Assembly: GCA_964219345.1 (NCBI GenBank)
Contig: CAXPPN010000024.1
Location: 33,554 to 97,553, forward strand
DNA length: 64,000 bases
Direction: 5' to 3'
Origin: Aeromicrobium sp.
GTDB lineage: Bacteria > Bacteroidota > Bacteroidia > Flavobacteriales > Flavobacteriaceae
Part shown: positions 552-60,048 of the stretch, piece after piece
Numbering within the stretch: the first letter of the stretch is position 1
Layout of the letters: each line of letters begins with the position of its first letter
Program-made: the position numbers and the translations under genes
Notes under the pieces: generated by a model
What the model saw: the letters and a program-made list of their open reading frames with translations, nothing else
Told to the model about the DNA's origin: nothing
Databases searched by the model: none

Positions 552-555
552 TATT

Positions 556-1314: not shown

Positions 1315-1316
1315 TT

Positions 1317-1961: not shown

Positions 1962-1989
1962 ATCTATTAAAAAAATAAAATAAAAAACA

Positions 1990-2724
1990 ATGATAGAACA
2001 CATCGAATTATTTTTTAAATCCATTTTTATTGATAATATGGTGTTTGCAGTTTTTTTGGGCATGTGCTCATATTTAGCTGTATCAAAAAAAGTATCCACT
2101 GCAGTTGGCTTGGGTGCTGCAGTCATTTTTGTATTAGCAATTACAGTACCTTTAAACTGGTTGTTAGATCAATATTTGCTACAGCCAGGAGCGTTATCAT
2201 GGTTAGGTGAAGAGTTTGCAGATTACGATTTAGGTTTTCTTTCTTTCATCATGTTTATTGCAACAATTGCAACAATGGTACAATTGGTTGAAATTATAGT
2301 AGAAAAATTCTCACCATCTTTGTACAATTCTCTTGGAATATTCTTGCCATTAATTGCAGTAAACTGTGCCATTTTAGGAGGTTCATTGTTTATGCAATCT
2401 CGAGAAATAGAAACCTTTGGACTAGCTGTTAATTATGGAATTTCATCTGGTATAGGATGGTTTTTGGCCATTTTAGCCATTGCTTCGATTCGCGAAAAAA
2501 TCAGATACTCAAATGTTCCTGGGCCACTAAGAGGACTTGGAATTACCTTTATAGTTACGGGTCTAATGGGAATAGGTTTCCTTAGTTTTGGAGGCATGCT
2601 AACAGGTGGAGATGAAGCTCCAAAAGAAGCGACTCAAGTTAATGAAACAGTCAAAATAGAAAACCTAGAGCCTGTAATTGAAAAAGAAAAAGAAATTGTA
2701 ACCATTACTAAATCAGATAACTAA
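1990..2724 (+). CDS. nqrE: Na+-translocating NADH:quinone reductase subunit E (with hydrophilic C-terminal tail)
   Basis: RnfA/NqrE-like polytopic membrane sequence in operon context. It carries an extra E/K/T-rich tail of about 40 aa. Confidence 0.88.
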   Translation: MIEHIELFFKSIFIDNMVFAVFLGMCSYLAVSKKVSTAVGLGAAVIFVLAITVPLNWLLDQYLLQPGALSWLGEEFADYDLGFLSFIMFIATIATMVQLVEIIVEKFSPSLYNSLGIFLPLIAVNCAILGGSLFMQSREIETFGLAVNYGISSGIGWFLAILAIASIREKIRYSNVPGPLRGLGITFIVTGLMGIGFLSFGGMLTGGDEAPKEATQVNETVKIENLEPVIEKEKEIVTITKSDN

Positions 2725-2725
2725 C

Positions 2726-4036
2726 ATGATTATTTTAGCTGCTGGAACAACCGGAACTGTCATAGCTACTGTCGTAGCATTCTTAGTAATTTCACTAATA
2801 CTTGTAAGTGTACTTCTTTTTGTAAAACAAAAATTATCTCCTTCAGGGCCTGTAAAAATCTTGATCAATGGCGAAAGAGAAATTGAAGTGTCATCTGGAG
2901 GAACACTGTTATCTACACTTGGGAATCAGAAAATATTTTTGCCATCTGCTTGTGGAGGTGGAGGAACCTGTATTCAATGTGAATGTCATGTACTCTCAGG
3001 TGGTGGAGAAGCCCTACCAACAGAAACACCTCATTTTTCTAGAAAAGAATTGCAAAGCGGTGCCCGATTATCTTGTCAAGTAAAAGTAAAACAAGACATG
3101 GAAATTACCATTCCAGAAGAAGTTTTTGGGATAAAAAAATGGGAAGCTACTGTTGTTAGAAACTATAATGTAGCCTCTTTTATCAAGGAATTTGTTGTTG
3201 AAATTCCAGAAGATATGGGCTATAAAGCTGGTGGATATATTCAAATTGAAATCCCAGCTTGCGAAATTAATTATAAAGATATAGATATCACAGCGCATCC
3301 AGAGGAGCACGATGATCCAAAAAAATTCCAAGCCGAATGGGACAAATTTGGATTGTGGCCTCTAACAATGAAAAATACTGAAACGGTAGAGCGTGCCTAT
3401 TCAATGGCATCTTACCCAGCAGAAGGACGGGAAATCATGCTTAATGTCCGTATTGCAACCCCACCATGGGATCGCTCAAAAAATGGATGGATGGATGTTA
3501 ATCCTGGAGTAGCCTCATCTTATATATTTGCTCAAAAGCCTGGTGATAAAGTTACCATTTCTGGACCTTATGGAGAATTCTTTATCAACGAGAGTGAATC
3601 AGAAATGCTTTATGTTGGCGGGGGTGCTGGAATGGCACCAATGCGTTCACATTTGTATCACTTGTTCAAAACCTTAAAAACAGGACGAAAAGTGACATAC
3701 TGGTATGGAGGTCGTTCAAAAAGAGAATTATTCTATTTAGATCATTTTAATCAATTAGAAAAAGAATTTCCTAATTTCAAATTCTACTTAGCACTTTCTG
3801 AGCCATTAGAAGAAGACAATTGGAAAGTCAAAGAAAATATAGATGCACCAGGAGATGGTTTTATTGGATTTATTCACAATTGTGTAATCGATAATTATTT
3901 AAATCATCACGAAGCTCCAGAAGACATTGAGCTCTATTTCTGTGGCCCTCCACTAATGAATAAAGCGGTTCAAAAAATGGGTGAAGACTTTGGAATTCCA
4001 GACGAACACATCCGATTTGATGATTTTGGAGGATAA
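2726..4036 (+). CDS. nqrF: Na+-translocating NADH:quinone reductase subunit F
   Basis: N-terminal TM segment, 2Fe-2S ferredoxin motif CGGGGTCIQCEC, FAD motif RAYSMAS, and NAD-binding GGGAGMAPM. Confidence 0.93.
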   Translation: MIILAAGTTGTVIATVVAFLVISLILVSVLLFVKQKLSPSGPVKILINGEREIEVSSGGTLLSTLGNQKIFLPSACGGGGTCIQCECHVLSGGGEALPTETPHFSRKELQSGARLSCQVKVKQDMEITIPEEVFGIKKWEATVVRNYNVASFIKEFVVEIPEDMGYKAGGYIQIEIPACEINYKDIDITAHPEEHDDPKKFQAEWDKFGLWPLTMKNTETVERAYSMASYPAEGREIMLNVRIATPPWDRSKNGWMDVNPGVASSYIFAQKPGDKVTISGPYGEFFINESESEMLYVGGGAGMAPMRSHLYHLFKTLKTGRKVTYWYGGRSKRELFYLDHFNQLEKEFPNFKFYLALSEPLEEDNWKVKENIDAPGDGFIGFIHNCVIDNYLNHHEAPEDIELYFCGPPLMNKAVQKMGEDFGIPDEHIRFDDFGG

Positions 4037-4060
4037 AATAAATTATCTTTATATTCACTA

Positions 4061-4097
4061 AAAAAGCTCAACAGAAATGTTGGGCTTTTTGTATTTT
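4061..4097 (+). terminator. Rho-independent terminator after nqrF
   Basis: 9-bp stem AGCTCAACA / TGTTGGGCT (one G-U pair) with a GAAA tetraloop, flanked by A5 and T5, then GTATTTTT. It starts 25 nt after the nqrF stop. Confidence 0.6.
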
Positions 4098-4099
4098 TG
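4092..4099 (+). promoter_or_regulatory. Candidate Bacteroidota -7 promoter box (TATTTTTG)
   Basis: Matches TAnnTTTG and lies 5 nt upstream of the ATG at 4104. Confidence 0.3.
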
Positions 4100-4103
4100 T
4101 AAT

Positions 4104-4481
4104 ATGTCAAAGCCACTCACAGAACAAGAACTTCATAACTTAGCAATGAACCATGTTGGTAAGGATTTAGAGGCTAGAGGATTCGAATTTGTAGCCATTA
4201 ATAGTAATTTAAAAAAACATCCACAATTTGTATGTATTGATAAAAACAACCAATATTTTTTTGTGATCGTCCGTGTGGTAAAATTACCAGAAAACCCTAA
4301 CAATTATGATGTTGTTTGGATGGAAACATTCAAAAAACATGCTTTCGAAAAAGATGCAAAAGTGCTCTATGCTGGGGTAGCTGTAGGAAATCCCAACGGC
4401 AAGGATTTACCAGTGTATCTTAATCAAGACTACTTGATGGAATACAATGGTATTCAAGTCATTGAAACCAATATGAACTAA
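4104..4481 (+). CDS. hypothetical protein (125 aa) between nqrF and apbE
   Basis: ORF-track 4077 start lies inside the terminator hairpin, so the second ATG at 4104 (MSKPLTEQ...) is preferred. No family recognised. Confidence 0.55.
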   Translation: MSKPLTEQELHNLAMNHVGKDLEARGFEFVAINSNLKKHPQFVCIDKNNQYFFVIVRVVKLPENPNNYDVVWMETFKKHAFEKDAKVLYAGVAVGNPNGKDLPVYLNQDYLMEYNGIQVIETNMN

Positions 4482-4491
4482 TTATAACAAC

Positions 4492-5454
4492 ATGAAAAAA
4501 ATAGTTTTATTTATTTTTTTAGGGTTGCTTTCTTGTACAAATAGCGTCAAACAGCAGCGTAATTCTGGTGGTGTTTTTGGAACAACATATAGTATTATAT
4601 ACGACAGTAATGAAGATTTTCAGCAGGAATTCGAGCAGATTTTTAATGACATTAATCATTCAATGTCTACATATATTCCCAACTCTATAATTTCTGAAGT
4701 CAATAACAATAGAATAACTAAAATTGACACTCACTTCAAAACAGTTTTTGAGACTTCAAAACGAGTTTTTGATGAAACTAGCGGTCGTTTTGATCCCACT
4801 ATTGGGGCGGTTGTCAATGCGTGGGATTTTGGTCCTGAGGGAAAAATTGAACAACTTGACAGTGTAAAAATAAAAAATCTAATGCAGTCTGTTGGCCTCA
4901 ATAAAGTTTCTGTAGAAGGATTTCAAATCAAAAAGCCAAGCGCTACTAAAATTGATTTTAATGCCATTGCAAAAGGATATGGTGTTGATCAAATAGGGTA
5001 TTTTTTAGAGTCTAATAGTGTTTCAAATTTTTTGGTTGAAATTGGTGGAGAAATTGTTTGTAAAGGGATAAATTCTTCAAAAGGAACCCCTTGGAAAATT
5101 GGTATACAAAACCCAAACATAGAGAGTGATTTTCCTTTTCTCAATAGTGTTGAACTCAACAATAAGGCAATGGCCACATCAGGAACATATAGAAAATATA
5201 AAGTTGATGAAAATGGACGGCGCTACACGCACATTATTGATGCCAAAACAGGTTATCCTAGCCGATCAAATATTTTGAGCATTTCTGTGATTGCCGAAAA
5301 TTGTATGGCTGCTGATGCCTATGCAACAGCACTTCAGACTATGAATTTAGAAGAATTATCCAATTTTTTAAGCAATCACCTTGAATTGAAAGTTTATATC
5401 ATTTTTGAAAATGAAAATAAAGAATTAGAATATAAATCCTTTAATGGGTTTTAG
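4492..5454 (+). CDS. apbE: FAD:protein FMN transferase ApbE (lipoprotein)
   Basis: Lipobox LLSCTNS, ApbE-type motifs (AKGYGVD, ATSGTYRKY), and position downstream of nqr. Confidence 0.87.
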   Translation: MKKIVLFIFLGLLSCTNSVKQQRNSGGVFGTTYSIIYDSNEDFQQEFEQIFNDINHSMSTYIPNSIISEVNNNRITKIDTHFKTVFETSKRVFDETSGRFDPTIGAVVNAWDFGPEGKIEQLDSVKIKNLMQSVGLNKVSVEGFQIKKPSATKIDFNAIAKGYGVDQIGYFLESNSVSNFLVEIGGEIVCKGINSSKGTPWKIGIQNPNIESDFPFLNSVELNNKAMATSGTYRKYKVDENGRRYTHIIDAKTGYPSRSNILSISVIAENCMAADAYATALQTMNLEELSNFLSNHLELKVYIIFENENKELEYKSFNGF

Positions 5455-5455
5455 T

Positions 5456-6250
5456 CTAACTAATAAGTGCAGCTTCTTTGTCTTTCAAAATACTTTTGTA
5501 AATATGATTCCAAAGCATTAATCGGTGTTCTAATGCTTGTTTTGCAGTTTTAAGAACTTCGTTCCATTTTTCAGTATCATTTCCACAAAGTGTTTCAACC
5601 ATTTGCAATGAAATTGGGCCATGCTCGTCGCCATCAATTTCTATGTGTCTTTGTAAGTAATACAGTAGTTTGCTGTAGCGATTGTCTTTTTCACTTGTTT
5701 TGGACTGTTGTATAATTTTTAAGAACATATCTGGAATAACATCCTCTCTACCAAAGGTAAAAGCAGAAGCAATACAATGTGGTTTTTGAGTTTTAATCAC
5801 ATCAAAAGTAAAGTTGATGAACTTGCAAATTTCCGTATCAATTTGTTGATTTTCCAAAGCTGTATTGATATCATTACCTTGAGATAAGCTGTATAAAAAT
5901 GATTTAATACCTGAAGGATCTGCCTGAATTTGATCCATGGCATCCATATACATTTCATAATGACTCTTTGCCTCGCCAAGTTCATTGACATCGCTTTCTT
6001 CTCCCATCACAATTTCATTAATAAAACGTGCAGCCTCTCCATGTCCTTTTGGAGTCCATGGAATACAAGTTGTGGTCAAATGATTTTGAAGTGCTTTAAG
6101 CAATGACATAAAATCCCACACAGCAAAAACATGAATTTCCATAAATGTTTTGATGTCATCAATAGTTTCAAGAGTTTTGTAGAGTGGATGCTGATTAATT
6201 TGTTGTCTCAAATCAATTAGTTCATTTTCAACATATTGGATAGGCTTCAT
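5456..6250 (-). CDS. DUF3050-like (heme-oxygenase-like fold) protein
   Basis: 264 aa. The HVFAVWDFMSLLKALQ motif is recalled from the DUF3050 family. No search was run. Confidence 0.55.
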   Translation of the reverse strand: MKPIQYVENELIDLRQQINQHPLYKTLETIDDIKTFMEIHVFAVWDFMSLLKALQNHLTTTCIPWTPKGHGEAARFINEIVMGEESDVNELGEAKSHYEMYMDAMDQIQADPSGIKSFLYSLSQGNDINTALENQQIDTEICKFINFTFDVIKTQKPHCIASAFTFGREDVIPDMFLKIIQQSKTSEKDNRYSKLLYYLQRHIEIDGDEHGPISLQMVETLCGNDTEKWNEVLKTAKQALEHRLMLWNHIYKSILKDKEAALIS

Positions 6251-10788: not shown

Positions 10789-11586
10789 TTGACATTATTT
10801 TTCAAATATTTTAGTTCTATTGTTTTACTTTTTTTCTTCACTTTGATTCAAGCTCAAACACGTGAATTTTCAGGAATTGTAAAAGCAGATGGAAATGTAG
10901 AAGGTATTCATATCATCAATAAAACGTCGTATCGTTACGCTACTACCGACAAAAGTGGGGGGTTTATAATTCAAGCAAAATTATCCGATTCATTATATTT
11001 TTCATCAATACAATATACTCCAAAAATTGTGGTAATAACTCCAAATATTCTTAAAGATAGTTTTATAGAAGTGCGCTTGGAAGACAGTGTGACTGAGCTA
11101 GATGAGGTTACAGTTGGAAAAATATTAACAGGAGATTTAAATTCAGATATTACTAATTCTGATGCCGAACGTCCTTTAGATTTTTATGATGTGGGTATTC
11201 CAGGATATACTGGTACAAGAAAAACACAAATTGAAAGTAGACTATATGAGGCAGATGCTGGAAAAATGGTATACCTAGGCTTTCCATATGCGATGCTTAA
11301 CCTCAATAAATTTTTAAATAAAATTACAGGTCGTACAAAAAAATTAAAACAAGCGGTCAAGATTGAAAAAGAAAGAAATATACTCACACACATTAAAGAA
11401 GTTGTAGGTCCAGAACTATTTAAAATAGAGAATCTTTCAGAAGAACTTGTGCCACAATTTTATTATTTCTGTGCTGATGATCCCAATTTTCAGCAACGCT
11501 GCGCCAATAGGAGCGATGTGCAAATTCTTCAGTTTTTACAAGAAAAACTAAAGGAATTCAAAGCCAACAATTTATCAGAAAATTAA
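10789..11586 (+). CDS. carboxypeptidase-regulatory-like domain protein (secreted, function unknown)
   Basis: Signal peptide and a CarboxypepD_reg-like N-terminal motif (FSGIVK...TDKSGGFII). TTG start. Confidence 0.5.
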   Translation: MTLFFKYFSSIVLLFFFTLIQAQTREFSGIVKADGNVEGIHIINKTSYRYATTDKSGGFIIQAKLSDSLYFSSIQYTPKIVVITPNILKDSFIEVRLEDSVTELDEVTVGKILTGDLNSDITNSDAERPLDFYDVGIPGYTGTRKTQIESRLYEADAGKMVYLGFPYAMLNLNKFLNKITGRTKKLKQAVKIEKERNILTHIKEVVGPELFKIENLSEELVPQFYYFCADDPNFQQRCANRSDVQILQFLQEKLKEFKANNLSEN

Positions 11587-11613
11587 AGGAATACTTCCTA
11601 TCTTTGTACCATT

Positions 11614-11895
11614 ATGAATGCTCTGCCATTGTTTATTAGTAGTACCGAAATTGTTTTCATTCTTTTTATTGTGATTATGGTTTTTGGTGCCGATAAAATC
11701 CCCGACATTGCAAAAGGGTTGGGTAAAGGCATGCGCACCCTAAAAAATGCTTCAAATGATATAAAAACTGAAATCCAACGCAGTGCAGAAAAGCAAGGTA
11801 TAGACACCGATTTGACTAAAGATATCAATGAAGAAATCAATAAAGTTAAAGAAGAAATAGAGGACCTAACAGGTTCAGTTCGTCGAAAATTATAA
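11614..11895 (+). CDS. tatA: twin-arginine translocase TatA/TatE family subunit
   Basis: TM segment followed by FGADKIPDIAKGLGKGMRTLKNA (TatA hinge/amphipathic helix). Confidence 0.8.
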   Translation: MNALPLFISSTEIVFILFIVIMVFGADKIPDIAKGLGKGMRTLKNASNDIKTEIQRSAEKQGIDTDLTKDINEEINKVKEEIEDLTGSVRRKL

Positions 11896-11896
11896 C

Positions 11897-12538
11897 TTAT
11901 TTTTTCACGCTTACAGTCAATCCATCACGTATGGGGAGCAGCACTGTTTCCAAGCGATGATCTTCTTTTAAAAGGCGATTGTATTCCAAAACAATTTTTG
12001 TTGATGCGTCATTTTCATCTATGGCCTCAATGACTTTTCCACTCCACAATACGTTATCAGAAAGAATAACACCTCCAGGGTTTAGTTGATCTATAATTTG
12101 ATGAAAATAATTAATATAATTGGGCTTATCTGCGTCCATAAATACCAAATCGAAAGTTGTGTCCAATGTTGGAATAATTTCCAAAGCAGGCCCCAAATGT
12201 TGATGAATTTGAGTACCATACTTCGACCGATCAAAATACTTTCTTTGAAAATCTACCAATTCTTCATTGATATCAATCGTATGTAGCACGCCATCATTTT
12301 GAAGTCCTTCGGCCAAACAAAGTGCAGAATACCCTGTAAATGTTCCCAATTCTAGAATTGTTTTTGGGCGAATAAGTTTAGATAGCATACTTAAAACACG
12401 ACCTTGATAGTGACCACTAAGCATTCGAGGTTGTAATATTTTTTGGTATGTTTCACGAGTTAATGCCTGTAAAAGTTCTGGTTCATCTGCTGAATGTTGA
12501 ACAACATAATCATCTAATTCATCTGAAATGAAATGCAT
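11897..12538 (-). CDS. class I SAM-dependent O-methyltransferase (caffeoyl-CoA OMT-like)
   Basis: 213 aa with LELGTFTGYSAL and FMDADK motifs. Its ATG overlaps the upstream ACMSD stop by 1 nt (TAATG). Confidence 0.8.
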   Translation of the reverse strand: MHFISDELDDYVVQHSADEPELLQALTRETYQKILQPRMLSGHYQGRVLSMLSKLIRPKTILELGTFTGYSALCLAEGLQNDGVLHTIDINEELVDFQRKYFDRSKYGTQIHQHLGPALEIIPTLDTTFDLVFMDADKPNYINYFHQIIDQLNPGGVILSDNVLWSGKVIEAIDENDASTKIVLEYNRLLKEDHRLETVLLPIRDGLTVSVKK

Positions 12539-13620
12539 TATCCTAAAATTTTCTGTGTAAATTCTTCAATTTTTTTCTGATCATTACCAAACAACCATCG
12601 CAACACATTGTCTTCCCAAATTTCATCATATTGTTCTTGATTAATGATGTTTCTTTCTTTTGCTAGATCCAATAATTTTCCTGGGTAAGATGATTGTGCC
12701 TCACTTTCCATTTCCCCAAGCGGGTAGGGGTCGTCTAGTCCCATAATGATTTGATTGCTTCCTTGTCTTTTGAGCATCAAATTAAAAGAATCTGTATCGT
12801 GAACCAAAGTGTCAAAATATATATTTGGGTGTCCAACAGCTTTTCGTGGATGCGTTTTTCCATCAAATAAATCGGGGCGTCCATCAAATCCTTGTATACG
12901 TCTTCCAAGATTCATTTGTGCCATTTGTCCACCGTGTGCAAAACAGGTTCTAATGTTCGGAAAACGTTCTTGCATTCCGTTTAAGGTATAAAAATGATAA
13001 GCGTCTCCACATTGAGCCAACATCCAAATCAAATGAAAACGCCATGAGGTATTTTCAAGTTTAATCATTTTATCGCCATCGTAGGGGTGTACTTCAATGG
13101 CTAAATTATATTTGTTTGCCAATTCAAAAATAGCGTCATTTTCTCTATCAAAAACACTTCGCCATTGGCCAATACTATCCATAAAATGTGTAGGCAGGCA
13201 CAGTACTTTTAGGTCTAATTCTTCAACACATCGTTCAATTTCCCATAAGGCGCCATGAATAAATCCTGGATGGACAACAAAACCACAAGTAAACTTTTTG
13301 CCATGCTTTTGTTGAATTTTAGCATTAAAATCATTTTGAAAACGCAAGGCTTTTTTCATCATCTCGAGACGTAATCCATTCCCATACAATTGAGAGAGAT
13401 TCAGTACAACGGCATGATCAATTTTATTTTTCTCCATCCAATCTAGTTTTTCATCAAGAAAAAAACTAGAATGGGTTACTGGACGACTCCAACCTTTTTG
13501 AAGCATATATTTTCTTTCGTCATCAACCCAAAAAATTTCTTTGTCTTTCATAAATTGAGGGATTTCCTCTGGATATGGAAGCAAGTGTGAGTGTCCGTTG
13601 ATGCGCAGTTTACGTTTCAT
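12538..13620 (-). CDS. amidohydrolase, probable 2-amino-3-carboxymuconate-6-semialdehyde decarboxylase (ACMSD)
   Basis: N-terminal INGHSHLLP HxH metal motif, 360 aa, and context next to 3-HAO within the kynurenine operon. Confidence 0.72.
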   Translation of the reverse strand: MKRKLRINGHSHLLPYPEEIPQFMKDKEIFWVDDERKYMLQKGWSRPVTHSSFFLDEKLDWMEKNKIDHAVVLNLSQLYGNGLRLEMMKKALRFQNDFNAKIQQKHGKKFTCGFVVHPGFIHGALWEIERCVEELDLKVLCLPTHFMDSIGQWRSVFDRENDAIFELANKYNLAIEVHPYDGDKMIKLENTSWRFHLIWMLAQCGDAYHFYTLNGMQERFPNIRTCFAHGGQMAQMNLGRRIQGFDGRPDLFDGKTHPRKAVGHPNIYFDTLVHDTDSFNLMLKRQGSNQIIMGLDDPYPLGEMESEAQSSYPGKLLDLAKERNIINQEQYDEIWEDNVLRWLFGNDQKKIEEFTQKILG

Positions 13621-13629
13621 TTTTGTGAT

Positions 13630-14154
13630 TTATAAATTATTTGGAGCTTCCATTTTTGCACCGCATTTATCGCAAGTACATTTTTCGGTATCGGAATAAT
13701 AGCGGTCAAAAATTGCCGGCATATCTGTTTCAATATTTTGTAGTGTAAATGGTTCTCTATAAAGCTGATGACTACATTGCTCACAATACCATTCCAACGC
13801 ATCTTGAACGCCTTCTGCTCTTGGATATTCAATGACCAGTCCAACAGTATTGGCGCCTCGTTGAGGTGAGTGTGGTACTTTTGCAGGTAGTAAATAGATG
13901 TCACCTTCTTTGATATGCACATCTTTTGATGCACCATTTTCAATTATTTTCAAAATAATATCACCTTCAATTTGATAGAAAAATTCAGGTGTTTCATTGT
14001 AATGATAATCTTTTCTATTGTTTGGTCCTCCAACAACCATCACAATAAATTCACCGTCTTTCCAAACACATTTGTTACCAACAGGGGGCTTTAATAGATC
14101 ACGATTTTCTTCAATCCAAGCCCTAAAATTAAGTGGGGATACTAGCGTACTCAT
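13630..14154 (-). CDS. nbaC: 3-hydroxyanthranilate 3,4-dioxygenase
   Basis: 174-aa cupin with C-terminal CxxC...CxxC (CEQC, CDKC), typical of bacterial HAO. Confidence 0.87.
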   Translation of the reverse strand: MSTLVSPLNFRAWIEENRDLLKPPVGNKCVWKDGEFIVMVVGGPNNRKDYHYNETPEFFYQIEGDIILKIIENGASKDVHIKEGDIYLLPAKVPHSPQRGANTVGLVIEYPRAEGVQDALEWYCEQCSHQLYREPFTLQNIETDMPAIFDRYYSDTEKCTCDKCGAKMEAPNNL

Positions 14155-14187
14155 GGTATTCTTTTTTTTGTTGTTATTGCTATAAAG

Positions 14188-14970
14188 TTACAAAGATTTT
14201 GTTCGTCCACCATCAACTGGAATATTTATTCCATTGATATAGCCTGCAGCTTCACTGGCCAAAAACACAATAGTATTGGCAGTTTCTTCTGGTTTTGCAA
14301 AGCGTTTAGCAGGGGTATATGTTTTCATAATACGTTCCATTTCTTTAAATGAAACATTGGCTTTTTTTGCTTTGACTTCAATAATTTCGTTCAATCGTTC
14401 AGTCTCTGTAAATCCAGGTAATACATTATTGACTGTAATTCCAAAAGCCCCCAATTCGAATGAAAGTGTTTTACTCCAATTTCCAACGGCATTGCGAATA
14501 GTATTGCTTACCCCCAAACCTTCGATAGGTTCTTTTACAGAAGTTGAAATCACATTAATAATGCGTCCATATTTCTCAGATTTCATAAAAGGAACAACAA
14601 GTTGTGTCAAAATATGATTGCATTTTAAATGTTGTGTAAATGCAGATTCAAATTGTTCTAAAGTCGCCTCTAAAATAGCACCACTTCGAGGTCCTCCGGT
14701 ATTATTGATAAGAATATGAAATCCTTTATGTGAGTTTAAATATTTTTCAACATTTATTTTTAGTTCTTCAGGATTTGAAAAATCGGCAACTATATAATCA
14801 TGAGCCGCAGTTTTTGGTAATTCGGATACTATTTTTTTGAGTTTTTCTTCGTTACGAGCCACAAGCGTAACACGTGTACCTTCACTGGCTAGTGCAACAG
14901 CAGTAGCATGCCCAATCCCTTGAGTACTTCCACAAACTAACGCCGATTTGTTATTTAAATTTAACTCCAT
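14188..14970 (-). CDS. SDR family oxidoreductase
   Basis: GSTQGIGHA nucleotide-binding motif, NNTGG, and a classical SDR length of 260 aa. Confidence 0.85.
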   Translation of the reverse strand: MELNLNNKSALVCGSTQGIGHATAVALASEGTRVTLVARNEEKLKKIVSELPKTAAHDYIVADFSNPEELKINVEKYLNSHKGFHILINNTGGPRSGAILEATLEQFESAFTQHLKCNHILTQLVVPFMKSEKYGRIINVISTSVKEPIEGLGVSNTIRNAVGNWSKTLSFELGAFGITVNNVLPGFTETERLNEIIEVKAKKANVSFKEMERIMKTYTPAKRFAKPEETANTIVFLASEAAGYINGINIPVDGGRTKSL

Positions 14971-14976
14971 ATCATC

Positions 14977-16422
14977 TTATTCATAATTAATACATACATT
15001 TTTTGCTTCCGTAAAAAAGCGTAAGACTTCAAAACCACCTTCACATCCAACCCCAGATGATTTTGCACCTCCAAAAGGGGTACGCAAATCGCGTTGCAGC
15101 CATGTATTGATCCATACAATTCCTGTTTGCAATTGCTCTGAAAAATAGAGACTTCGTTTTAGATTATTGGTCCAAACTGTAGCGGACAGACCATATTTTA
15201 CATTATTAGCTAGTTTTAGAGCTTCTGTGTCTCCTTTGAACGGCATCAAAGTAACCACTGGTCCAAAAATTTCTTCTTGATTTAATACACAGTCATTAGA
15301 TGAAACTTCAATAACTGTAGGCTGCATATAGTATCCATTTTTTCCATTTTCAACAGAAACACGCTCACCTCCATACAAAACAGTTGCATTCTCTTGTTTT
15401 ACTTGTTCTATATAGCTCAAAACTTTGTCTAGATGAGGTTTGGAGACTAATGCACCAATATCAATGTTTTTTTCTGATGGTAGACCTACTTTTAATTGTT
15501 TTACTTTTTCAATAAAATCATTTTTAAATTGCTCATAAATCGACGCTTCTACAAAAATCCGACTTCCACAAAGACAAATTTGTCCTTGATTTGCAAACGA
15601 AGATTTAACGGTAGTTGAAAGCATTTTCTTATAATCACAATCTGCAAATATGATATTAGGATTTTTCCCTCCCAATTCGAGAGATAATTTTTTAAAAAGT
15701 GGCGCTGCTGTTTTAGCAATATGTGCACCTGTTTTTGTTCCTCCGGTAAATGAAATTGCTTTGATGTTTGGATGCTCCACAATGGCCTGACCTGTTGTGG
15801 TGCCCATTCCATGAACAATATTTAGAACCCCTTTTGGAAGTCCTGCTTTGGTGCATATTTCTGCCAACAAAAAAGCAGTATAAGGGGTAACTTCACTAGG
15901 CTTGGCCACTACGCAGTTTCCTGCGGCTAGTGCTGGTGCTATTTTCCATGTAAAGAGGTAAAGAGGTAAGTTCCAAGGTGAAATACAACCCACTACACCA
16001 ATGGGTTGGCGTAAGGTAAAATTGATGTTTTTTTGTGAAATTTGTTCGTGACTTTCGCTATAAAACTGTGTTATTGCTTGGCTGAAAAACCTAAAATTAA
16101 GTGCTGCTCTAGGGATATCCACTTTTTTGGCTAAACTTAATGGTTTGCCATTATCCATGCTCTCGGCAACCGCCAATGTATCTAATTTTGATACAATCAA
16201 ATCGGCTATTTTATAAAGAATTTCACTACGCTGTTCGACCGATGTTTTGGACCACGAAGCAAATGCATTATTGGCCGCTTTATAGGCCTCTTCAACATCT
16301 TTATCAGTCGAATTGGGTAGTTTACCATACACTACACCAGTACTCGGGTCTATGGCCTCTAACCATTCGTTGTTTGAGGACTCGTAATAGGTTCCGTTGA
16401 TGTAATTTTTTATGGTAATCAT
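14977..16422 (-). CDS. NAD-dependent aldehyde dehydrogenase, probable 2-aminomuconate-6-semialdehyde dehydrogenase
   Basis: ALDH motifs LELGGKNP and FANQGQICLCGSR. Substrate is inferred from context only. Confidence 0.8.
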   Translation of the reverse strand: MITIKNYINGTYYESSNNEWLEAIDPSTGVVYGKLPNSTDKDVEEAYKAANNAFASWSKTSVEQRSEILYKIADLIVSKLDTLAVAESMDNGKPLSLAKKVDIPRAALNFRFFSQAITQFYSESHEQISQKNINFTLRQPIGVVGCISPWNLPLYLFTWKIAPALAAGNCVVAKPSEVTPYTAFLLAEICTKAGLPKGVLNIVHGMGTTTGQAIVEHPNIKAISFTGGTKTGAHIAKTAAPLFKKLSLELGGKNPNIIFADCDYKKMLSTTVKSSFANQGQICLCGSRIFVEASIYEQFKNDFIEKVKQLKVGLPSEKNIDIGALVSKPHLDKVLSYIEQVKQENATVLYGGERVSVENGKNGYYMQPTVIEVSSNDCVLNQEEIFGPVVTLMPFKGDTEALKLANNVKYGLSATVWTNNLKRSLYFSEQLQTGIVWINTWLQRDLRTPFGGAKSSGVGCEGGFEVLRFFTEAKNVCINYE

Positions 16423-16823
16423 TACTGTTTTTTATAAGCTACTACTTTTATTTCAATCACTAGGTCGGGGTGTGGAAGTTGATGTACTGCTACGGTAGTT
16501 CTTGTTGGTCCTGTATCAGTATCAAAAAACTCTGCATAGGCCTTGTTATAATCTGCAAAATCATTCATATTAACCAAAAATGAGGTCACATCTACCACAT
16601 CTGCTAATGATGCTCCCTCTTTAGCTAAATTTTTATCAATGTTTTGAAGTACTTCTCGGGTTTGAACGGCCACATCCAATTTTTTTGTGCCCATACTGTC
16701 TATTTGCTCTGCCCCTGCAATACTATTGTCTGCTCGTCTAGAACTTGTTCCAGAAACAAAAATAAAATCACCTACACGTTTTGTGTGTGGATAGGCGCCT
16801 CTTGGTGTGACTGTTTTACTCAT
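16422..16823 (-). CDS. RidA/YjgF family protein, candidate 2-aminomuconate deaminase
   Basis: 133-aa RidA fold (TTVAV...IEIKVVA). Its stop overlaps the ALDH start by 1 nt. Confidence 0.8.
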
Positions 16824-16840
16824 AATTTAAAATTTTACAG

Positions 16841-18244
16841 TTAATGATTTAAGGTTTTAGCAATCTTATCATCTTCCAAAATGGAATTGGTTTCTTTTTT
16901 AATTTTTTCATAAAGCGATGAAATGGATATGTTTTGGTCGATCCCCTCATCATTAATCATATTTAATATGGCCTTATCTTGTGCTCTTCCTCTAATCATG
17001 GCCTCGTGATAGCCCATATCTTCCCTAAAAGTAACCATTGAATATTTAGAAAAGTAATCGTTTGGGAGTTCTGTTTCTAAAGTCATTTCTAAGGCACGTT
17101 TTTTCTGAAAAAGGGCATTTGCGACATGGTCTTTCATTTCGTGGAAATTATCAATAGCCAAGTCTGCAATACCGTCTGCGTCTATTTTTCGCTTTTGTTG
17201 AAAGGCTTTAAATGTTTTTTCCCAGTTGCCATCATGCTGCTCTAAAAAAGTATCAAATTCTACAACATCCTCAAAGGAAGCATTCATCCCTTGACCATAA
17301 AAAGGTACAATAGCATGTGCTGCATCTCCGAGTAACAGGTTTTTGCCTTTAAATTGCCATGGAAAACATTTTACAGTGCCTAGTGGTGCTGTTGGATTTT
17401 CAAAAAATTCTGATGCCAAATTTGGCATCAACTCTAAAGCATCTGGAAATTCATTTTTAAAGAAATTCAATACTTTTTCTTTGGTTGTCAGATTGTTGAA
17501 GTTGTAGGTTCCACCTTCGTAAGCCAAAAATAGAGTTACGGTAAAACTTCCATCCAAATTTGGTAATGCTATAATCATATACTCACCTCTTGGCCAAATG
17601 TGAAGTGCGTTTTTAAATGCTCTAAACGCACCATCTTTAGAGGGAGGAATAGTCAATTCTTTATAGCAATGTGTTAGAAAATTTTGAGAAAAACTAAATA
17701 AAAACTTACGTTCCAAAAAGTAACTTTTTCGCAGTGCTGAACCTGCTCCATCGGTTCCAAAAATAAGGTCTGCGGTGCAGTCAAAAGTTTGTCCATTTTC
17801 AGTATTGATGAAATTGGCAGTGTTATTTTCAAAATCAACAGCATTACATTTACTATTGAATTCAATTTTTACATTTTCAAGTGCTTCGGCCTCATCCATT
17901 AGAAGCGCAGTAAGCAGCTCTCTTGATATCGAATTTATGTATTCGTCTTCGCGCCCGCTGTACCTAGAGAGTTTTGTTTTACCCTCTCTATCATGTAACA
18001 TACGGCCATGCATTGGAATACAAAGTTTCATGACTTTATCTTCCAAACCAACCATTTTCATGGCTTTGATGCCTCTGTTGGAAAAGGCCAAATTGATAGA
18101 CCGTCCAGCGCTGATATCAACTTTTCTTAGGTCTGGTCTAAGCTCCATAACACGGACGTTGTATCCTCTTTGTCCTAGACGTAATGCCAAAAGAGAACCA
18201 CACAGCCCAGCTCCAATAATTAAAATAGTTTCTTTTTGTTTCAT
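16841..18244 (-). CDS. kmo: kynurenine 3-monooxygenase
   Basis: FAD motif IIGAGLCGS, a GDAAH motif, and 467 aa. Overlaps the kynU stop by 4 nt. Confidence 0.87.
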   Translation of the reverse strand: MKQKETILIIGAGLCGSLLALRLGQRGYNVRVMELRPDLRKVDISAGRSINLAFSNRGIKAMKMVGLEDKVMKLCIPMHGRMLHDREGKTKLSRYSGREDEYINSISRELLTALLMDEAEALENVKIEFNSKCNAVDFENNTANFINTENGQTFDCTADLIFGTDGAGSALRKSYFLERKFLFSFSQNFLTHCYKELTIPPSKDGAFRAFKNALHIWPRGEYMIIALPNLDGSFTVTLFLAYEGGTYNFNNLTTKEKVLNFFKNEFPDALELMPNLASEFFENPTAPLGTVKCFPWQFKGKNLLLGDAAHAIVPFYGQGMNASFEDVVEFDTFLEQHDGNWEKTFKAFQQKRKIDADGIADLAIDNFHEMKDHVANALFQKKRALEMTLETELPNDYFSKYSMVTFREDMGYHEAMIRGRAQDKAILNMINDEGIDQNISISSLYEKIKKETNSILEDDKIAKTLNH

Positions 18245-19509
18245 TTGAGTAGATTTTTTAGGATTTCAACCATGCGAAAGACATCTTCAAATGAATTGTA
18301 AAAAGGAACAGGAGCACATCGAATCACATCGGGTTCTCTCCAGTCTGTAATCACATGGTTTTCAATGAGTTGTTTATGAAGTGTTTTGTCAGCATTTTTT
18401 ACTTGAATAGAGAGTTGACATCCACGTTCATTAGGGTTGCTTGGTGTGATGATATTAATGTGAGGGTGATTTATTTCGTTAATCAGAAACTCCAAATAAG
18501 CTGTAAGTTTTAAGGATTTTTGGCGTAATGCAGTCATGCCTACTTCATTAAACAAATCTAATGAGGCTTTAATTGCTGCCATTGATAGAATTGGAGGGTT
18601 ACTCAATTGCCAGCCCTCTGCTCCAGGTGTAATATCTAAAGGTTGTCGCATATTGAATCGGGTTGTTTTGTTTTGACTCCACCAGCCAGCAAAACGTTTT
18701 AATGTTTTATCATTCGCGTAGCGTTCGTGCACAAATATTCCGCCCAAACTTCCAGGGCCAGAATTTAGGTATTTATACGTACACCATGCCGCAAAATCTA
18801 CTCCAGAATCATGTAGTTCTGGTTGAATATTGCCTACACCGTGTGCTAAATCAATACCTACTTTACAACCCTTGGCATGGCCAAGTTTTGCAATTTCTTT
18901 TAAATTCAAGTATTGTCCTGTATAATAATTGACACCGCCAATCAGAAGAAGTGCAATCTCGTCGCCTTGTTCCTCAAGAATATGTTCTAAATCTTCAATT
19001 CTTAATAAAGTTTCACCTTTTCTAGGGTGCCATTCTACAAGACATTCATTGGCATCAAAACCATGAAATTCCAATTGTGTTTGTACGGCATATCGATCTG
19101 ATGGAAAAGCATCACTTTCAATTAATATTTTACAGCGTTTTGGTGTAGGATTATAAAATGAAACCATCAACAAGTGAAGATTTGTTGTGAGGGTATTCAT
19201 CACCACAACTTCAATGGGTTTTGCGCCCACAATTTTAGCCATACTTTCTGTAAGAAATTCATGATAGGGCATCCATGGATTTTTGGCTTCAAAATGACCT
19301 TCAACACCAAGTTTGGCCCAGTCGTTGAGCTCTTGATCTATGGCCAATTTTGTGGATTTTGGTTGCAGTCCAAGAGAATTTCCTGTAAAATACAACCAGT
19401 TTTTTCCATTATCTTCTTTTGGAATATGAAATGCATTTATGTATGATGCCAATGGATCATTTTGATCCATTTGCTGAGCAAATTCTAGATGTGATTTAAA
19501 TACCAGCAA
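18241..19509 (-). CDS. kynU: kynureninase
   Basis: YFTGNSLGLQP and CTYKYLNSGPG (PLP lysine) motifs. TTG start; the next in-frame ATG is 13 codons in. Confidence 0.9.
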   Translation of the reverse strand: MLVFKSHLEFAQQMDQNDPLASYINAFHIPKEDNGKNWLYFTGNSLGLQPKSTKLAIDQELNDWAKLGVEGHFEAKNPWMPYHEFLTESMAKIVGAKPIEVVVMNTLTTNLHLLMVSFYNPTPKRCKILIESDAFPSDRYAVQTQLEFHGFDANECLVEWHPRKGETLLRIEDLEHILEEQGDEIALLLIGGVNYYTGQYLNLKEIAKLGHAKGCKVGIDLAHGVGNIQPELHDSGVDFAAWCTYKYLNSGPGSLGGIFVHERYANDKTLKRFAGWWSQNKTTRFNMRQPLDITPGAEGWQLSNPPILSMAAIKASLDLFNEVGMTALRQKSLKLTAYLEFLINEINHPHINIITPSNPNERGCQLSIQVKNADKTLHKQLIENHVITDWREPDVIRCAPVPFYNSFEDVFRMVEILKNLLK

Positions 19510-19520
19510 GACAATTTGTT

Positions 19521-19539
19521 TTGAGTGTACTCAAATGTA
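19521..19539 (-). promoter_or_regulatory. Candidate kyn-operon promoter -7 box (TACATTTG) overlapping a 6-2-6 inverted repeat TTGAGT-GT-ACTCAA
   Basis: The minus-strand TAnnTTTG match (19539->19532) shares bases with the inverted repeat at 19521-19534. The repeat lies 12 nt upstream of the kynU start. Confidence 0.3.
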
Positions 19540-19582
19540 GGTAATTTTAGCCGATTATAAAATTGAGTTAGAGTTGTGAAAA

Positions 19583-20245
19583 TCAGTGGTTTTCTTTTAA
19601 TAAATGCGGAAATTTTGCTTTAAAACGTTTTAATCTTGGAATAGAAACATTACGAACATAAGGATTATTGGGGTGCAAGCGCTCATAGTTTTGGTGATAG
19701 TTTTCGGCTTTCCAAAATTTTTGAAATGGGTAAACCTCTGCGGCTACGGTTGTATTTTCTGTTTTTTCAATTTTTGCTATTTTCTTTAAGATAATTGCTT
19801 TTTGTTCTTGATTTTGATAAAAAATAATCGAACGATATTGCGAGCCTCTGTCTGGACCCTGACCATTAACTTGCGACACATTTTGAGAACCAAAATATAC
19901 ATCCACCAAAGTTGAAAAAGACACCACAGATGGATTGTAAAGAACTTCTACAGCTTCGGCATGACCAGTTCGGCCAGTATTGCTGAGTTCGTAGGTGGGG
20001 TTGTCGGTAAACCCACCCGCATAACCACTAATGGCTTCTTGAACACCATATACACTTTCGTAAACGGCTTCGACACACCAAAAACACCCACCGGCAAAAT
20101 AAGCCTTAGCAATGCTATTTTTTAGTGGAACTTCAATGGGCTTGGCATTGATAACCGCTTGTTGTTTGGTGTTTTGTGCGTTGTTGTTTTGACAACTTAC
20201 AGGACTACAAAAGAGTAGGGGAAGGAGTAAAAAGATGTTTTTCAT
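19583..20245 (-). CDS. msrA: peptide-methionine (S)-S-oxide reductase MsrA, with signal/lipoprotein-like leader
   Basis: GGCFWCVE active site. Start chosen at MKNIFLLLPLLFCSPVSC. Confidence 0.87.
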   Translation of the reverse strand: MKNIFLLLPLLFCSPVSCQNNNAQNTKQQAVINAKPIEVPLKNSIAKAYFAGGCFWCVEAVYESVYGVQEAISGYAGGFTDNPTYELSNTGRTGHAEAVEVLYNPSVVSFSTLVDVYFGSQNVSQVNGQGPDRGSQYRSIIFYQNQEQKAIILKKIAKIEKTENTTVAAEVYPFQKFWKAENYHQNYERLHPNNPYVRNVSIPRLKRFKAKFPHLLKENH

Positions 20246-20355
20246 GGTGCATATGTTTGGGGTAAAATTAAGCATCCACCAATGGTATTTTGTGAAATTT
20301 TGGTTAAAAATCTTATATATCGACGATTTTAATTGTTGCCAATAGTTTTTATCAG

Positions 20356-20562
20356 TTACAATTTTTCATTCAAGTCTTGTCTTCCAACAATAGCCATTAT
20401 TTCCACAATATTTTGATTGATTCTGTAGTAAATACTATCAACTCCACATGCACAACGCCGATATCCTTTTTTTATGTAATCTACAGATTCAAAGGAAAAA
20501 GGGCGTTTTGCAATAATGTCAAAATATTCAAAAAACGATTCGAAATAGTGATCCGCTAGTTT
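20356..20562 (-). pseudogene. 5'-truncated ParE/RelE-family toxin remnant
   Basis: 68-codon stop-to-stop frame with no start codon: KLADHYFESFFEYFDIIAKRPFSFESVDYIKKGYRRCACGVDSIYYRINQNIVEIMAIVGRQDLNEKL. The C-terminal pattern matches ParE/RelE toxins, and the first 25-30 residues or so are missing or out of frame. Confidence 0.5.
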
Positions 20563-20690
20563 TTACTTTGGTCTGAATTCGATATGTAGTATATGTATGA
20601 TTTAGGTCATTCATGTTTTTGAAGAATAGATTTGGGTGCTATTCACTTCAAATGTATAAAAATTTTTAAAGCAAAAAGAAGCATAGCACA

Positions 20691-20720
20691 AAAAAACCCT
20701 CACGTTTGGTGAGGGTTTTT
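20691..20720 (-). terminator. Rho-independent (bidirectional-type) terminator downstream of the COG1579-like gene
   Basis: AAAAAACCCTCAC-GTTTG-GTGAGGGTTTTT: a 7-bp GC-rich stem extendable by A/T pairs, with a T-run on the minus strand. It lies 20 nt after the stop at 20741. Confidence 0.7.
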
Positions 20721-20740
20721 GGTATGTGTAGGGTTATTTA

Positions 20741-21520
20741 TTACATAGTAGAAAATAACTTTTCCATTTTTACTTTTTGCTCTTCGGCTAATGTAGAATC
20801 GACCAAAATACGACCACTGTGTTCGTCTGTAATGATTTTTTTGCGAGAAGCAATTTCCATTTGTACTTGTGGTGGAATGGTAAAATATGAGCCTCCAGAA
20901 GCACCTCTTTCAATGGGTACAACGGCCAATCCGTTTTTAACATTACTACGGATTTTTGTGTATGCTTTTGCCAAACGGTCTTCAATTTTTGTTTTGTATT
21001 CTTCAGATTTTTCTAAAAGTACTTTTTCTTCTTTTTCAGTTTCTGCAAGAATAGCGTCCAAATCGCCTTTTTTGTGCTTTAGGTGTTCTTCACGTTCTTT
21101 TAAACGTTCTTTAGTGCCCTCAATCACTTCCTTTTTTTGTTCAATTTGAGCTTTAAATTCTTTGATGTGCTTTTCGGCCAATTGGATTTCTAGTTCTTGA
21201 AATTCAACTTCTTTTGCCAAAGAATTAAACTCTCTATTGTTGCGAACATTCTTTTGTTGTTCGTTGTATTTTTTGATGAGAACTTTTGATTCTTCAATAA
21301 GGTTTTTCTTCGCCTTAATCTGGTTATCAATATCTGTAAGACTATCTTCTAGTTTTTGAAGTCGTAGTTTGAATCCTTCAACTTCGTCTTCCAAATCGCG
21401 TACTTCAAGAGGTAATTCTCCTCGAACGTTACGGATTTCGTCTACTCTAGAGTCTATGAGTTGCAAATCGTACAGTGCTCTTAATCGTTCTTCAACAGTT
21501 AGCTCTTTTTTCTTAGCCAT
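20741..21520 (-). CDS. COG1579/DUF164-like coiled-coil protein (zinc-ribbon family, but cysteine-free)
   Basis: 259 aa, E/K-rich coiled coil, N-terminal RLRALYDLQLIDSRVDEI motif, and a conserved pairing with the upstream Nif3 gene. Confidence 0.65.
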   Translation of the reverse strand: MAKKKELTVEERLRALYDLQLIDSRVDEIRNVRGELPLEVRDLEDEVEGFKLRLQKLEDSLTDIDNQIKAKKNLIEESKVLIKKYNEQQKNVRNNREFNSLAKEVEFQELEIQLAEKHIKEFKAQIEQKKEVIEGTKERLKEREEHLKHKKGDLDAILAETEKEEKVLLEKSEEYKTKIEDRLAKAYTKIRSNVKNGLAVVPIERGASGGSYFTIPPQVQMEIASRKKIITDEHSGRILVDSTLAEEQKVKMEKLFSTM

Positions 21521-49300: not shown

Positions 49301-49305
49301 CGAGC

Positions 49306-51880: not shown

Positions 51881-51881
51881 G

Positions 51882-52868: not shown

Positions 52869-52871
52869 AAC

Positions 52872-53438: not shown

Positions 53439-53439
53439 G

Positions 53440-54846: not shown

Positions 54847-54878
54847 AAAAAAAAGGCTTGTCGTGAAAGACAAGCCTT
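54847..54878 (-). terminator. trp attenuator terminator hairpin
   Basis: Minus strand AAGGCTTGTC-TTTCAC-GACAAGCCTT: a 10-bp perfect stem followed by a run of 8 T in total (last 2 stem bases plus 6 more). It abuts the trpE ATG. Confidence 0.75.
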
Positions 54879-59951: not shown

Positions 59952-60048
59952 ATTCTGTTAATTATTTTTTTATTATTTTTAAACAAATCAAACTTACATG
60001 CGATCTCTACTTTATTGCAGATTCAAAACCGTTAATACAAATAACCAA

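Follow-up and report, generated by a model that had tools for sequence, protein, structure and literature searches.

A kynurenine operon of a marine flavobacterium and its atypical SDR, a candidate for the reduction of 2-oxohex-3-enedioate to 2-oxoadipate

The closest described systems are the tryptophan pathway of Burkholderia cenocepacia and the amn/nba clusters of Pseudomonas, which serve 2-aminophenol and nitrobenzene. They combine 3-hydroxyanthranilate 3,4-dioxygenase (HAO) or aminophenol dioxygenase with the decarboxylase of 2-amino-3-carboxymuconate-6-semialdehyde (ACMSD), 2-aminomuconate-6-semialdehyde dehydrogenase (AMSDH), and a 2-aminomuconate deaminase of the AmnE type. From there, they continue with 4-oxalocrotonate decarboxylase, 2-oxopent-4-enoate hydratase, 4-hydroxy-2-oxovalerate aldolase, and acetaldehyde dehydrogenase. 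After 2-aminomuconate, bacteria are known to use only this 4-oxalocrotonate meta pathway. Here, we describe an eight-gene kynurenine operon on a 64-kb stretch of the contig CAXPPN010000024.1 (Flavobacteriaceae; hereafter the window), which encodes the same four enzymes but has an atypical short-chain dehydrogenase/reductase (SDR) instead of the lower pathway. The SDR is very probably an enzyme of the kynurenine pathway, and we propose that it reduces 2-oxohex-3-enedioate (4-oxalocrotonate) to 2-oxoadipate, a reaction to which we give an even chance.

For decades, the kynurenine pathway has had an open end past 2-aminomuconate: the product of the animal enzyme ASPDH still has to pass through further steps, and fungi stop at the deaminase. 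Human ASPDH converts 2-aminomuconate to L-2-aminohex-3-enedioate without release of ammonia, fungi have a RidA deaminase resembling that of bacteria, with no fate assigned to its product, and ASPDH and the RidA-type deaminase are mutually exclusive in eukaryotes (preprint of June 2026, bioRxiv 10.64898/2026.06.05.730449). An initial annotation of the window had likened the SDR to a "poorly defined" reductase of the animal pathway. This analogy is outdated as the step is now assigned to ASPDH, which is unrelated; homology of the SDR to the animal enzyme is ruled out by the different folds. In Aspergillus, the reduction of 2-oxo-3-hexenedioate to 2-oxoadipate was proposed, and according to a figure legend, an SDR is syntenic in some 3-hydroxyanthranilate (3-HAA) clusters (PMC7842363, fig. 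5 legend). In the literature that we searched, no gene is assigned to the reduction of 2-oxohex-3-enedioate to 2-oxoadipate in any organism.

The operon and its pathway enzymes

Eight consecutive, co-directional open reading frames (ORFs) on the minus strand fill positions 11897–19509 of the window, which has a GC content of about 35%. They encode, from upstream to downstream, kynureninase (kynU), kynurenine 3-monooxygenase (KMO), a RidA-family deaminase, an aldehyde dehydrogenase (ALDH), the SDR, HAO, ACMSD, and an O-methyltransferase (OMT). The genes are closely packed: kynU and KMO overlap by 4 nt, RidA and ALDH by 1 nt, and ACMSD and OMT by 1 nt, and the remaining gaps amount to 17 nt (KMO-RidA), 6 nt (ALDH-SDR), 33 nt (SDR-HAO), and 9 nt (HAO-ACMSD). 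The ORF listing and a check of the junctions bore out the eight genes, their coordinates, and the tight coupling described in the initial annotation, and homology confirmed the functions it had given for seven of them.

The operon is expressed in situ. Contigs of four marine metatranscriptomes match along it with at least 95% identity. They span the OMT/ACMSD, ALDH/RidA, and RidA/KMO junctions as well as the spacer between kynU and msrA, and X26 contigs cover ACMSD/HAO/SDR (13586–14455) and SDR/ALDH (14507–15066). The bridged junctions are consistent with a polycistronic transcript, with the reservation that the contigs are strandless, come from related strains, and may include DNA. One X26 contig carries a 3-nt deletion at 14178, within the 33-nt spacer between HAO and SDR; this is strain variation that leaves the frames intact.

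The first two enzymes are clearly identified. KynU (18241–19509, 422 aa) scores 448.5 bits with the kynureninase model TIGR01814 (cut-off 246.4) and matches PF22580 (KYNU_C). The longest ORF opens with TTG, and the true start is uncertain. For KMO (16841–18244, 467 aa; PF01494, FAD_binding_3, in Pfam), all ten of the best PDB sequence matches are KMO structures and nothing else, with E-values from 1e-93 (6lkd) to 2e-65, including the human enzyme (5x68, 8e-85) and that of P. fluorescens (5fn0, 2e-80).

HAO (13630–14154, 174 aa) reaches 265.8 bits with NF009763 (cut-off 220) and 247.7 bits with TIGR03037 (cut-off 146). It also matches PF06052 and carries CxxC...CxxC at the C-terminus (residues 124 and 161). 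In three Formosa-like metagenome-assembled genomes (MAGs; L009, L010, L011), HAO is only 50–52% identical to the window HAO while the clusters are otherwise 76–91% identical, which suggests that the gene was replaced by a divergent HAO copy.

The ACMSD-like amidohydrolase (12538–13620, 360 aa) is more divergent. It is weak in Pfam (Amidohydro_2, 3e-9), reaches no NCBIfam model, and is too divergent in its N-terminal 120 residues for a phmmer alignment. All 13 PDB matches are ACMSD, and the human enzyme (2wm1, 1.4e-23) ranks before that of P. fluorescens (2hbv, 1.6e-8). The motifs H10-S-H12, VH178PYD, CFAH229GG, GR240R241, and GLD296D297 are present; of these, H10/H12, H178, D296, H229, and R240 align with the metal ligands, the catalytic His, and the carboxylate-binding Arg of human ACMSD. 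H10, H12, H229, R240, R241, D296, and D297 are invariant in 75 orthologues (H178 lies outside this count). We, therefore, assign the protein as a divergent ACMSD that has kept the catalytic motifs. Its orthologues fall into two identity classes of 74–78% and 84–94%.

The RidA/YjgF-family protein (16422–16823, 133 aa) matches PDB 6izh, annotated as 2-aminomuconate deaminase (AmnE), with an E-value of 3.5e-49 and 66% identity over 127 columns. Its best generic RidA match is just 9e-18, and the score with the NCBIfam RidA subfamily is under the cut-off. By homology, it is a 2-aminomuconate deaminase of the AmnE type and not a generic RidA protein. The seven best PDB matches of the ALDH (14977–16422, 481 aa) are all AMSDH, from 2e-134 (7bzv) to 7e-126, with 4i1w at 3e-127; the next ALDH family follows behind at 5e-114. 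The catalytic motifs PWN151, E249LGGK, and GQIC283 are present, and the stretches RDLRTPFGG and PR..NFR are shared with 7bzv. The best NCBIfam model is TIGR03216 with 550 bits, under the cut-off of 693. By these matches, the ALDH is assigned as 2-aminomuconate-semialdehyde dehydrogenase. The proposal in the initial annotation that flux runs past HAO towards 2-aminomuconate was upheld as ACMSD, AMSDH, and the AmnE-type deaminase are all specific matches.

The SDR and its genomic linkage

The SDR (14188–14970, 260 aa) matches only the SDR families of Pfam, PF13561 and PF00106. The Rossmann glycine motif (G14-STQGIG), the NNTGG motif starting at N89, and S142 are present. The classical YxxxK is missing: the position reads S155-N-T-I-R159, that is, S-x3-R instead of Y-x3-K. 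All 160 orthologues that were collected retain LGVSNxxR and lack YxxxK, and the motif of the clade is ISTSVK...LGVSNxxR. R39, which follows strand β-2, is at least 90% conserved in a cross-clade alignment of 50 sequences; an Arg after β-2 is the usual NADP(H) signature.

The AF2 model has SDR topology with a predicted local distance difference test (pLDDT) of 96 and a predicted template modelling score (pTM) of 0.93. Its nearest structures by Foldseek are 5va8, AerF (6jha/6jhb), and YwfH/BacG (3u4c), with template modelling (TM) scores of 0.92–0.93 and root-mean-square deviations of 1.6–2.0 Å, and all of them are NADP(H) complexes. In phmmer, the sequence matches AerF with an E-value of 3.8e-41 and 36% identity and BacG/YwfH with 1.3e-31 (identities 30–36%). 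Judged by these alignments, AerF and BacG are the closest characterised relatives. Like the window SDR, they have an SDR fold without YxxxK at the usual place and NADPH-bound structures. AerF is described as an alkenal double-bond reductase that uses NADPH (PMC13256417; PMC10143770 ref 59), and BacG/YwfH converts dihydro-4-hydroxyphenylpyruvate (H2HPP) to the tetrahydro compound (H4HPP; PMC9147277). Both depend on NADPH and reduce a C=C bond that is in conjugation with a 2-oxo acid (PMC13256417; PMC10143770 ref 59; PMC9147277).

The best matches in both sequence and structure are TM1169 (1o5i), APE0912 (2z1n), and the Burkholderia proteins 5va8/5idy/5vps, which have the same S-N-x-x-R in place of YxxxK. 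They are 29–38% identical to the window SDR and are "FabG-like" SDRs from structural genomics without known function.

The linkage of the SDR was followed in four sets of loci. Set 1 consists of 80 SDR-anchored loci from at least 30 genera of Flavobacteriaceae, with SDRs 69–98% identical to that of the window; the closest is on the MAG contig JAQCDS010000004 (98%). Set 2 contains 80 loci around relatives of the distant representative P0126, 51–69% identical to the window SDR. For another distant representative, P0121, a 1.1-kb contig is the only context. Set 3 holds 80 loci around AmnE-like deaminases from Pseudomonas, Achromobacter, Chromobacterium, Acidobacteriaceae, and actinobacteria. Set 4 comprises 78 new flavobacterial loci that are anchored on the ALDH and are, therefore, unbiased as to the SDR.

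Neighbourhood conservation in Bacteroidota, which the initial annotation had proposed to map, is evident from set 1, where the full eight-gene order occurs in 57 of the 80 loci and another seven miss only OMT. In set 4, the full order is found in 60 of the 78 loci. The SDR directly follows the ALDH in 75 of them; of the three exceptions, two are cut off by the end of a contig, so that 75 of the 76 assessable ALDH-anchored loci carry the SDR. As the eight-gene order recurs in this way in SDR-anchored as well as ALDH-anchored loci, the arrangement is well past chance expectation.

The linkage extends beyond this family. Set 2 covers Gamma- and Alphaproteobacteria (including Dokdonella and Rudaea), Planctomycetota, Gemmatimonadota, Calditrichia, Ignavibacteria, Binatia, Acidobacteriota, and several orders of Bacteroidota. 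The gene order there differs from that in Flavobacteriaceae and reads (TDO)-SDR-ALDH-RidA-HAO-ACMSD-kynB-kynU-KMO, where TDO stands for tryptophan 2,3-dioxygenase and kynB for the cyclase-type kynurenine formamidase. The SDR is immediately followed by the ALDH in 23 loci, TDO immediately precedes it in seven loci, and HAO stands divergently beside the SDR in six Bacteroidia loci. Among the 43 loci whose 8-kb flanks are complete, 30 have at least one kynurenine gene. The flanks differ as well, with surA-pdxA-ksgA-apaH in Gammaproteobacteria versus msrA/tatA in Flavobacteriaceae. Altogether, the linkage between the SDR and kynurenine genes repeats in no fewer than eight phylum-level lineages. 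All ORFs of compact clusters like L134 and L147 are assigned, and the SDR is the sole enzyme there without a step.

Two groups of neighbouring genes were considered as further pathway leads and rejected. The genes upstream of the proteobacterial clusters are the housekeeping genes surA-pdxA-ksgA-apaH, and the translations of genes inserted in looser flavobacterial clusters are unrelated (GIY-YIG nuclease, GNAT, GH65-like protein, two-component systems, M1 peptidase). The GIY-YIG nuclease-like ORF of about 120 aa lies inside the cluster, between ALDH and SDR or between RidA and ALDH, in 11 loci, including L057, L027, L039, L054, and L055; it is possibly a mobile homing-type element.

The genes of the lower meta-cleavage pathway show the opposite distribution. 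With representatives from AmnE-type loci as tblastn queries, 4-oxalocrotonate decarboxylase (4-OD)/hydratase, DmpF, and DmpG gave no match in the 64-kb window, the operon of which had been described without these genes in the initial annotation, and none in the panel of 238 SDR-bearing loci. Among the AmnE-type loci of set 3, 20 of 80 carry 4-OD/hydratase genes, 15 of 80 carry DmpF and DmpG, and not one of the 80 carries this SDR. Thus, no examined locus has both the SDR and meta-cleavage genes.

Proposed reaction and alternatives

We consider it very probable that the SDR belongs to the kynurenine pathway, as the initial annotation had supposed. In favour of this are the synteny across phyla in another gene order, the near-obligate co-occurrence with the ALDH, and the kinship to C=C reductases of 2-oxo acids. 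Directly supported are the gene identities, the operon structure, the expression in situ, the linkage of the SDR to the pathway across phyla, and the lack of meta-cleavage genes nearby.

On our reading, the eight genes make up a single expressed operon in an uncultured, Formosa-like marine flavobacterium. KMO and kynureninase would convert kynurenine to 3-hydroxyanthranilate, and HAO would open the ring to 2-amino-3-carboxymuconate semialdehyde (ACMS), the spontaneous cyclisation of which would supply quinolinate for NAD. ACMSD, AMSDH, and the AmnE-type deaminase would drain the excess via 2-aminomuconate semialdehyde and 2-aminomuconate to 2-oxohex-3-enedioate. This predicted deaminase product is an α,β-unsaturated 2-oxo acid. 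The SDR would transfer the hydride of NADPH to C4, with protonation at C3, to give 2-oxoadipate, the same chemistry as that of BacG and AerF on cyclic 2-oxo-enoates. General metabolism would then take 2-oxoadipate to glutaryl-CoA. As 2-oxoadipate is a common intermediate on the way to glutaryl-CoA, the cluster would need no additional genes of its own. For this reaction, with its substrate, the reduction of C=C and not of C=O or C=N, the product, and the use of NADPH all predicted, the chances stand about even. Somewhat below this, we tentatively suggest that the SDR clade represents the first gene for the orphan step linking the 2-aminomuconate branch to 2-oxoadipate. It would pair with the AmnE-type deaminase as a bacterial "2-aminomuconate reductase" of two enzymes and complete a route from tryptophan to 2-oxoadipate/glutaryl-CoA in many phyla, as an alternative to the 4-oxalocrotonate meta pathway.

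Several findings weigh against the proposed reaction. The first concern the active site. The positions aligned to the catalytic K113/Y117 of BacG (K/Y also in AerF, helix 4) are H114/N118 in the window SDR. H114 is invariant in 81 Flavobacteriaceae sequences, and most of the 50 sequences in the cross-clade alignment share it. In addition, AerF and BacG carry S-G-x-x-N and x-S-x-x-N, whereas S-N-x-x-R is invariant in the window SDR family. Because of the replaced helix-4 residues and the lack of S-N-x-x-R in AerF and BacG, the window SDR is placed in a sister clade and not as an orthologue of these enzymes. The substrates differ as well, since those of AerF and BacG are cyclic precursors of secondary metabolites and the one proposed here is an open-chain dicarboxylate.

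The others concern gene content. L033, L044, L052, and L069 (Gelatiniphilus, Mariniflexile, Postechiella, Algibacter amylolyticus) contain the cluster kynU-KMO-SDR-HAO-ACMSD-OMT, from which RidA and ALDH are missing; ACMSD without AMSDH, as in these loci, should lead to picolinate. Leeuwenhoekiella sp. A16 (L145) has only kynU-KMO-SDR-OMT, and Confluentibacter lentus (L048) and Marixanthotalea marina (L056) have SDR-OMT alone, as no kynurenine gene lies within 10 kb of the pair. A relocated AMSDH in species that have the SDR without ALDH and RidA was not found among the best 80 matches to the ALDH of Algibacter luteus as query. Outside this family, 13 of the 43 full-flank loci of set 2 have no kynurenine gene within 8 kb. 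Where its partners are missing, they may have been lost recently, or the SDR may serve another purpose as well. The few genomes in which the SDR stands without ALDH and RidA, or away from any kynurenine genes, speak against its role being strictly exclusive. The SDR can outlast its proposed partners, whereas the ALDH almost never occurs without the SDR. Finally, in set 3, clusters of, for example, Achromobacter (L177–L226) and Acidobacteriaceae (L167, L183, L187, L191, L207) lack the SDR as well as the genes for 4-OD, hydratase, and aldolase within 10 kb. As many AmnE-type clusters show neither solution nearby, the local absence of meta-cleavage genes is weak evidence. These clusters are arranged as ALDH-RidA-(LysR)-HAO-ACMSD(-KMO-kynU), in Achromobacter beside genes of a branched-chain-type ABC transporter.

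The SDR could instead reduce 2-aminomuconate itself at the imine/enamine, like metazoan ASPDH (aminomuconate reductase, AMR), to yield 2-aminohex-3-enedioate or 2-aminoadipate, with RidA in a parallel or scavenging role. Animals are documented to reduce 2-aminomuconate with NAD(P)H (bioRxiv 10.64898/2026.06.05.730449), the 23 loci of other phyla place the SDR next to the ALDH that makes this compound, and some loci with SDR and ALDH have no RidA in view (L084, L092, L093, L112, L114, L144). Yet the AmnE-type deaminase accompanies the SDR in 71 of the 80 Flavobacteriaceae loci and in 31 of the 80 loci of other phyla. Two enzymes of one operon competing for one labile substrate would be less economical, and the nearest characterised relatives act on the C=C of 2-oxo acids and not on imines. 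We, therefore, regard the direct reduction as unlikely.

Also unlikely, in our judgement, is a role as carbonyl reductase or detoxifier of a reactive intermediate, acting on the aldehyde of ACMS or 2-aminomuconate semialdehyde or on the 2-oxo group to limit damage or the formation of picolinate or quinolinate. SDRs are typically carbonyl reductases, and this role would agree with the four genera in which the SDR stays with HAO and ACMSD in the absence of ALDH and RidA, as well as with the six Bacteroidia loci with a divergent HAO gene beside it. However, S155 and R159 replace the Tyr and Lys of carbonyl-reducing SDRs in every one of the 160 orthologues, and no downstream use of such alcohols is encoded nearby. 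The near-absence of the ALDH without the SDR (75 of 76) fits better with a step after the ALDH.

That the SDR has nothing to do with tryptophan catabolism and is carried along by synteny, with 4-oxalocrotonate decarboxylase, hydratase, and aldolase elsewhere in the genome, is likewise unlikely: SDR-OMT pairs without kynurenine genes (L048, L056, L161), the 13 unlinked loci of other phyla, and the closest structural-genomics relatives without known function (TM1169, APE0912, 5va8) could be read in this way, but drift does not predict linkage in at least eight phylum-level lineages with different order and flanks, the unlinked SDRs are 61–68% identical to linked ones and by this measure belong to the same orthologous group, and SDR-bearing loci lack meta-cleavage genes just as meta-cleavage loci lack the SDR.

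Surroundings of the operon and comparison with known systems

The last gene of the operon encodes a cation-dependent OMT of the catechol/caffeoyl-CoA (CCoA) type (11897–12538, 213 aa; PF01596, Methyltransf_3, 3.9e-53), with bacterial SAM O-methyltransferases and CCoAOMT as best PDB matches. In the sets of loci compared, it is attached to the cluster only in Flavobacteriaceae. The designation as an eight-gene kynurenine operon thus stands with regard to co-transcription and overstates the role of the OMT, which is co-transcribed with the pathway genes without an established function among them. A role in the methylation of 3-hydroxyanthranilate or 3-hydroxykynurenine was considered and set aside, since nothing beyond co-transcription speaks for this and the gene is absent from clusters outside Flavobacteriaceae. 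The adjacency of SDR and OMT persists in L048, L056, L161, and L145 though HAO, ACMSD, ALDH, and RidA are missing from the locus, in two of these also without kynU and KMO.

Upstream of kynU, msrA (19583–20275) lies on the same strand, separated by a 73-nt spacer (19510–19582, minus strand). The spacer holds one sigma-70-like match (19582–19554) and is a possible, weak promoter region. In a promoter and terminator scan of 11400–20800, the counts were not above those of shuffled controls, with models that do not cover Bacteroidota promoters. As RNA contigs cross the spacer into msrA, read-through from msrA into kynU is possible. On the other side, a 93-aa ORF (11614–11895) that reads as TatA is convergent with the operon. 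Rfam and tRNA scans of the 64-kb window gave no matches.

No homologue of TDO, of the cyclase-type kynurenine formamidase kynB, or of nadC was found in the 64 kb, and the initial annotation had already placed the first two outside the window. Pfam scans of about 60 window ORFs outside 53.4–60 kb found no ASPDH domain and, apart from the operon, only housekeeping genes and a trp operon. This tryptophan biosynthesis operon (48536–54873, minus strand: trpA, trpB, trpF, trpC, trpD, trpG; putative trpE at 53440–54873, by position and size) is located some 30 kb away from the kynurenine operon. The organism can thus form tryptophan as well as cleave its ring, in agreement with a route from tryptophan to NAD. 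Because the complete biosynthesis operon is 30 kb away, the main use of the kynurenine operon may be NAD supply rather than growth on tryptophan.

Further genes of the window are a Na+-translocating NADH:quinone reductase operon on the plus strand (12–5454; C-terminal part of NqrB, then C, D, E, and F, a 134-aa ORF without family match, and the ApbE flavin transferase) and, on the minus strand between ApbE and a methionine aminopeptidase, a DUF3050 protein of a family with a haem-oxygenase-like fold (5456–6250, 3.6e-101). From about 59980 to 64000 on the plus strand, an ORF of at least 1339 aa with a signal-like N-terminal sequence runs past the end of the window; it probably encodes a large secreted or cell-surface protein.

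If the proposed reaction is true, deamination followed by reduction of the enone would be a third, simple route that leads straight to 2-oxoadipate. It would give a new reaction to an atypical SDR clade now annotated as "FabG-like" or "3-oxoacyl-ACP reductase" and would direct attention to the unassigned fungal step that follows the deaminase. Genome-scale models of marine Bacteroidota, which usually treat the pathway as an NAD route only, would have to be corrected, and the reaction would be relevant for engineered routes to 2-oxoadipate and adipate. The SDR is a directly testable candidate as all substrates can be obtained enzymatically from 3-hydroxyanthranilate.

Compared with the known systems, the operon would resemble the liver pathway, in which KMO, KYNU, and HAO feed quinolinate and NAD; here, ACMSD, AMSDH, 2-aminomuconate deaminase (AMD), and the SDR would clear the excess. 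The ACMSD is of a divergent type nearer to the human than to the Pseudomonas enzyme. Like ASPDH/AMR, the SDR would provide an NAD(P)H-dependent reductive step after ALDH8A1/AMSDH and keep the tryptophan carbon on the way to 2-oxoadipate/glutaryl-CoA. Unlike the SDR, ASPDH has the aspartate dehydrogenase fold and acts on 2-aminomuconate, whereas the window has a deaminase and an SDR in one operon. The 3-hydroxyanthranilate cluster of Aspergillus has the same four enzymes, HAO, ACMSD, AMSDH, and the RidA-type AMD; its genes do not form an operon. In relation to Pseudomonas and Burkholderia, the SDR would replace the decarboxylase, hydratase, and aldolase of the lower pathway.

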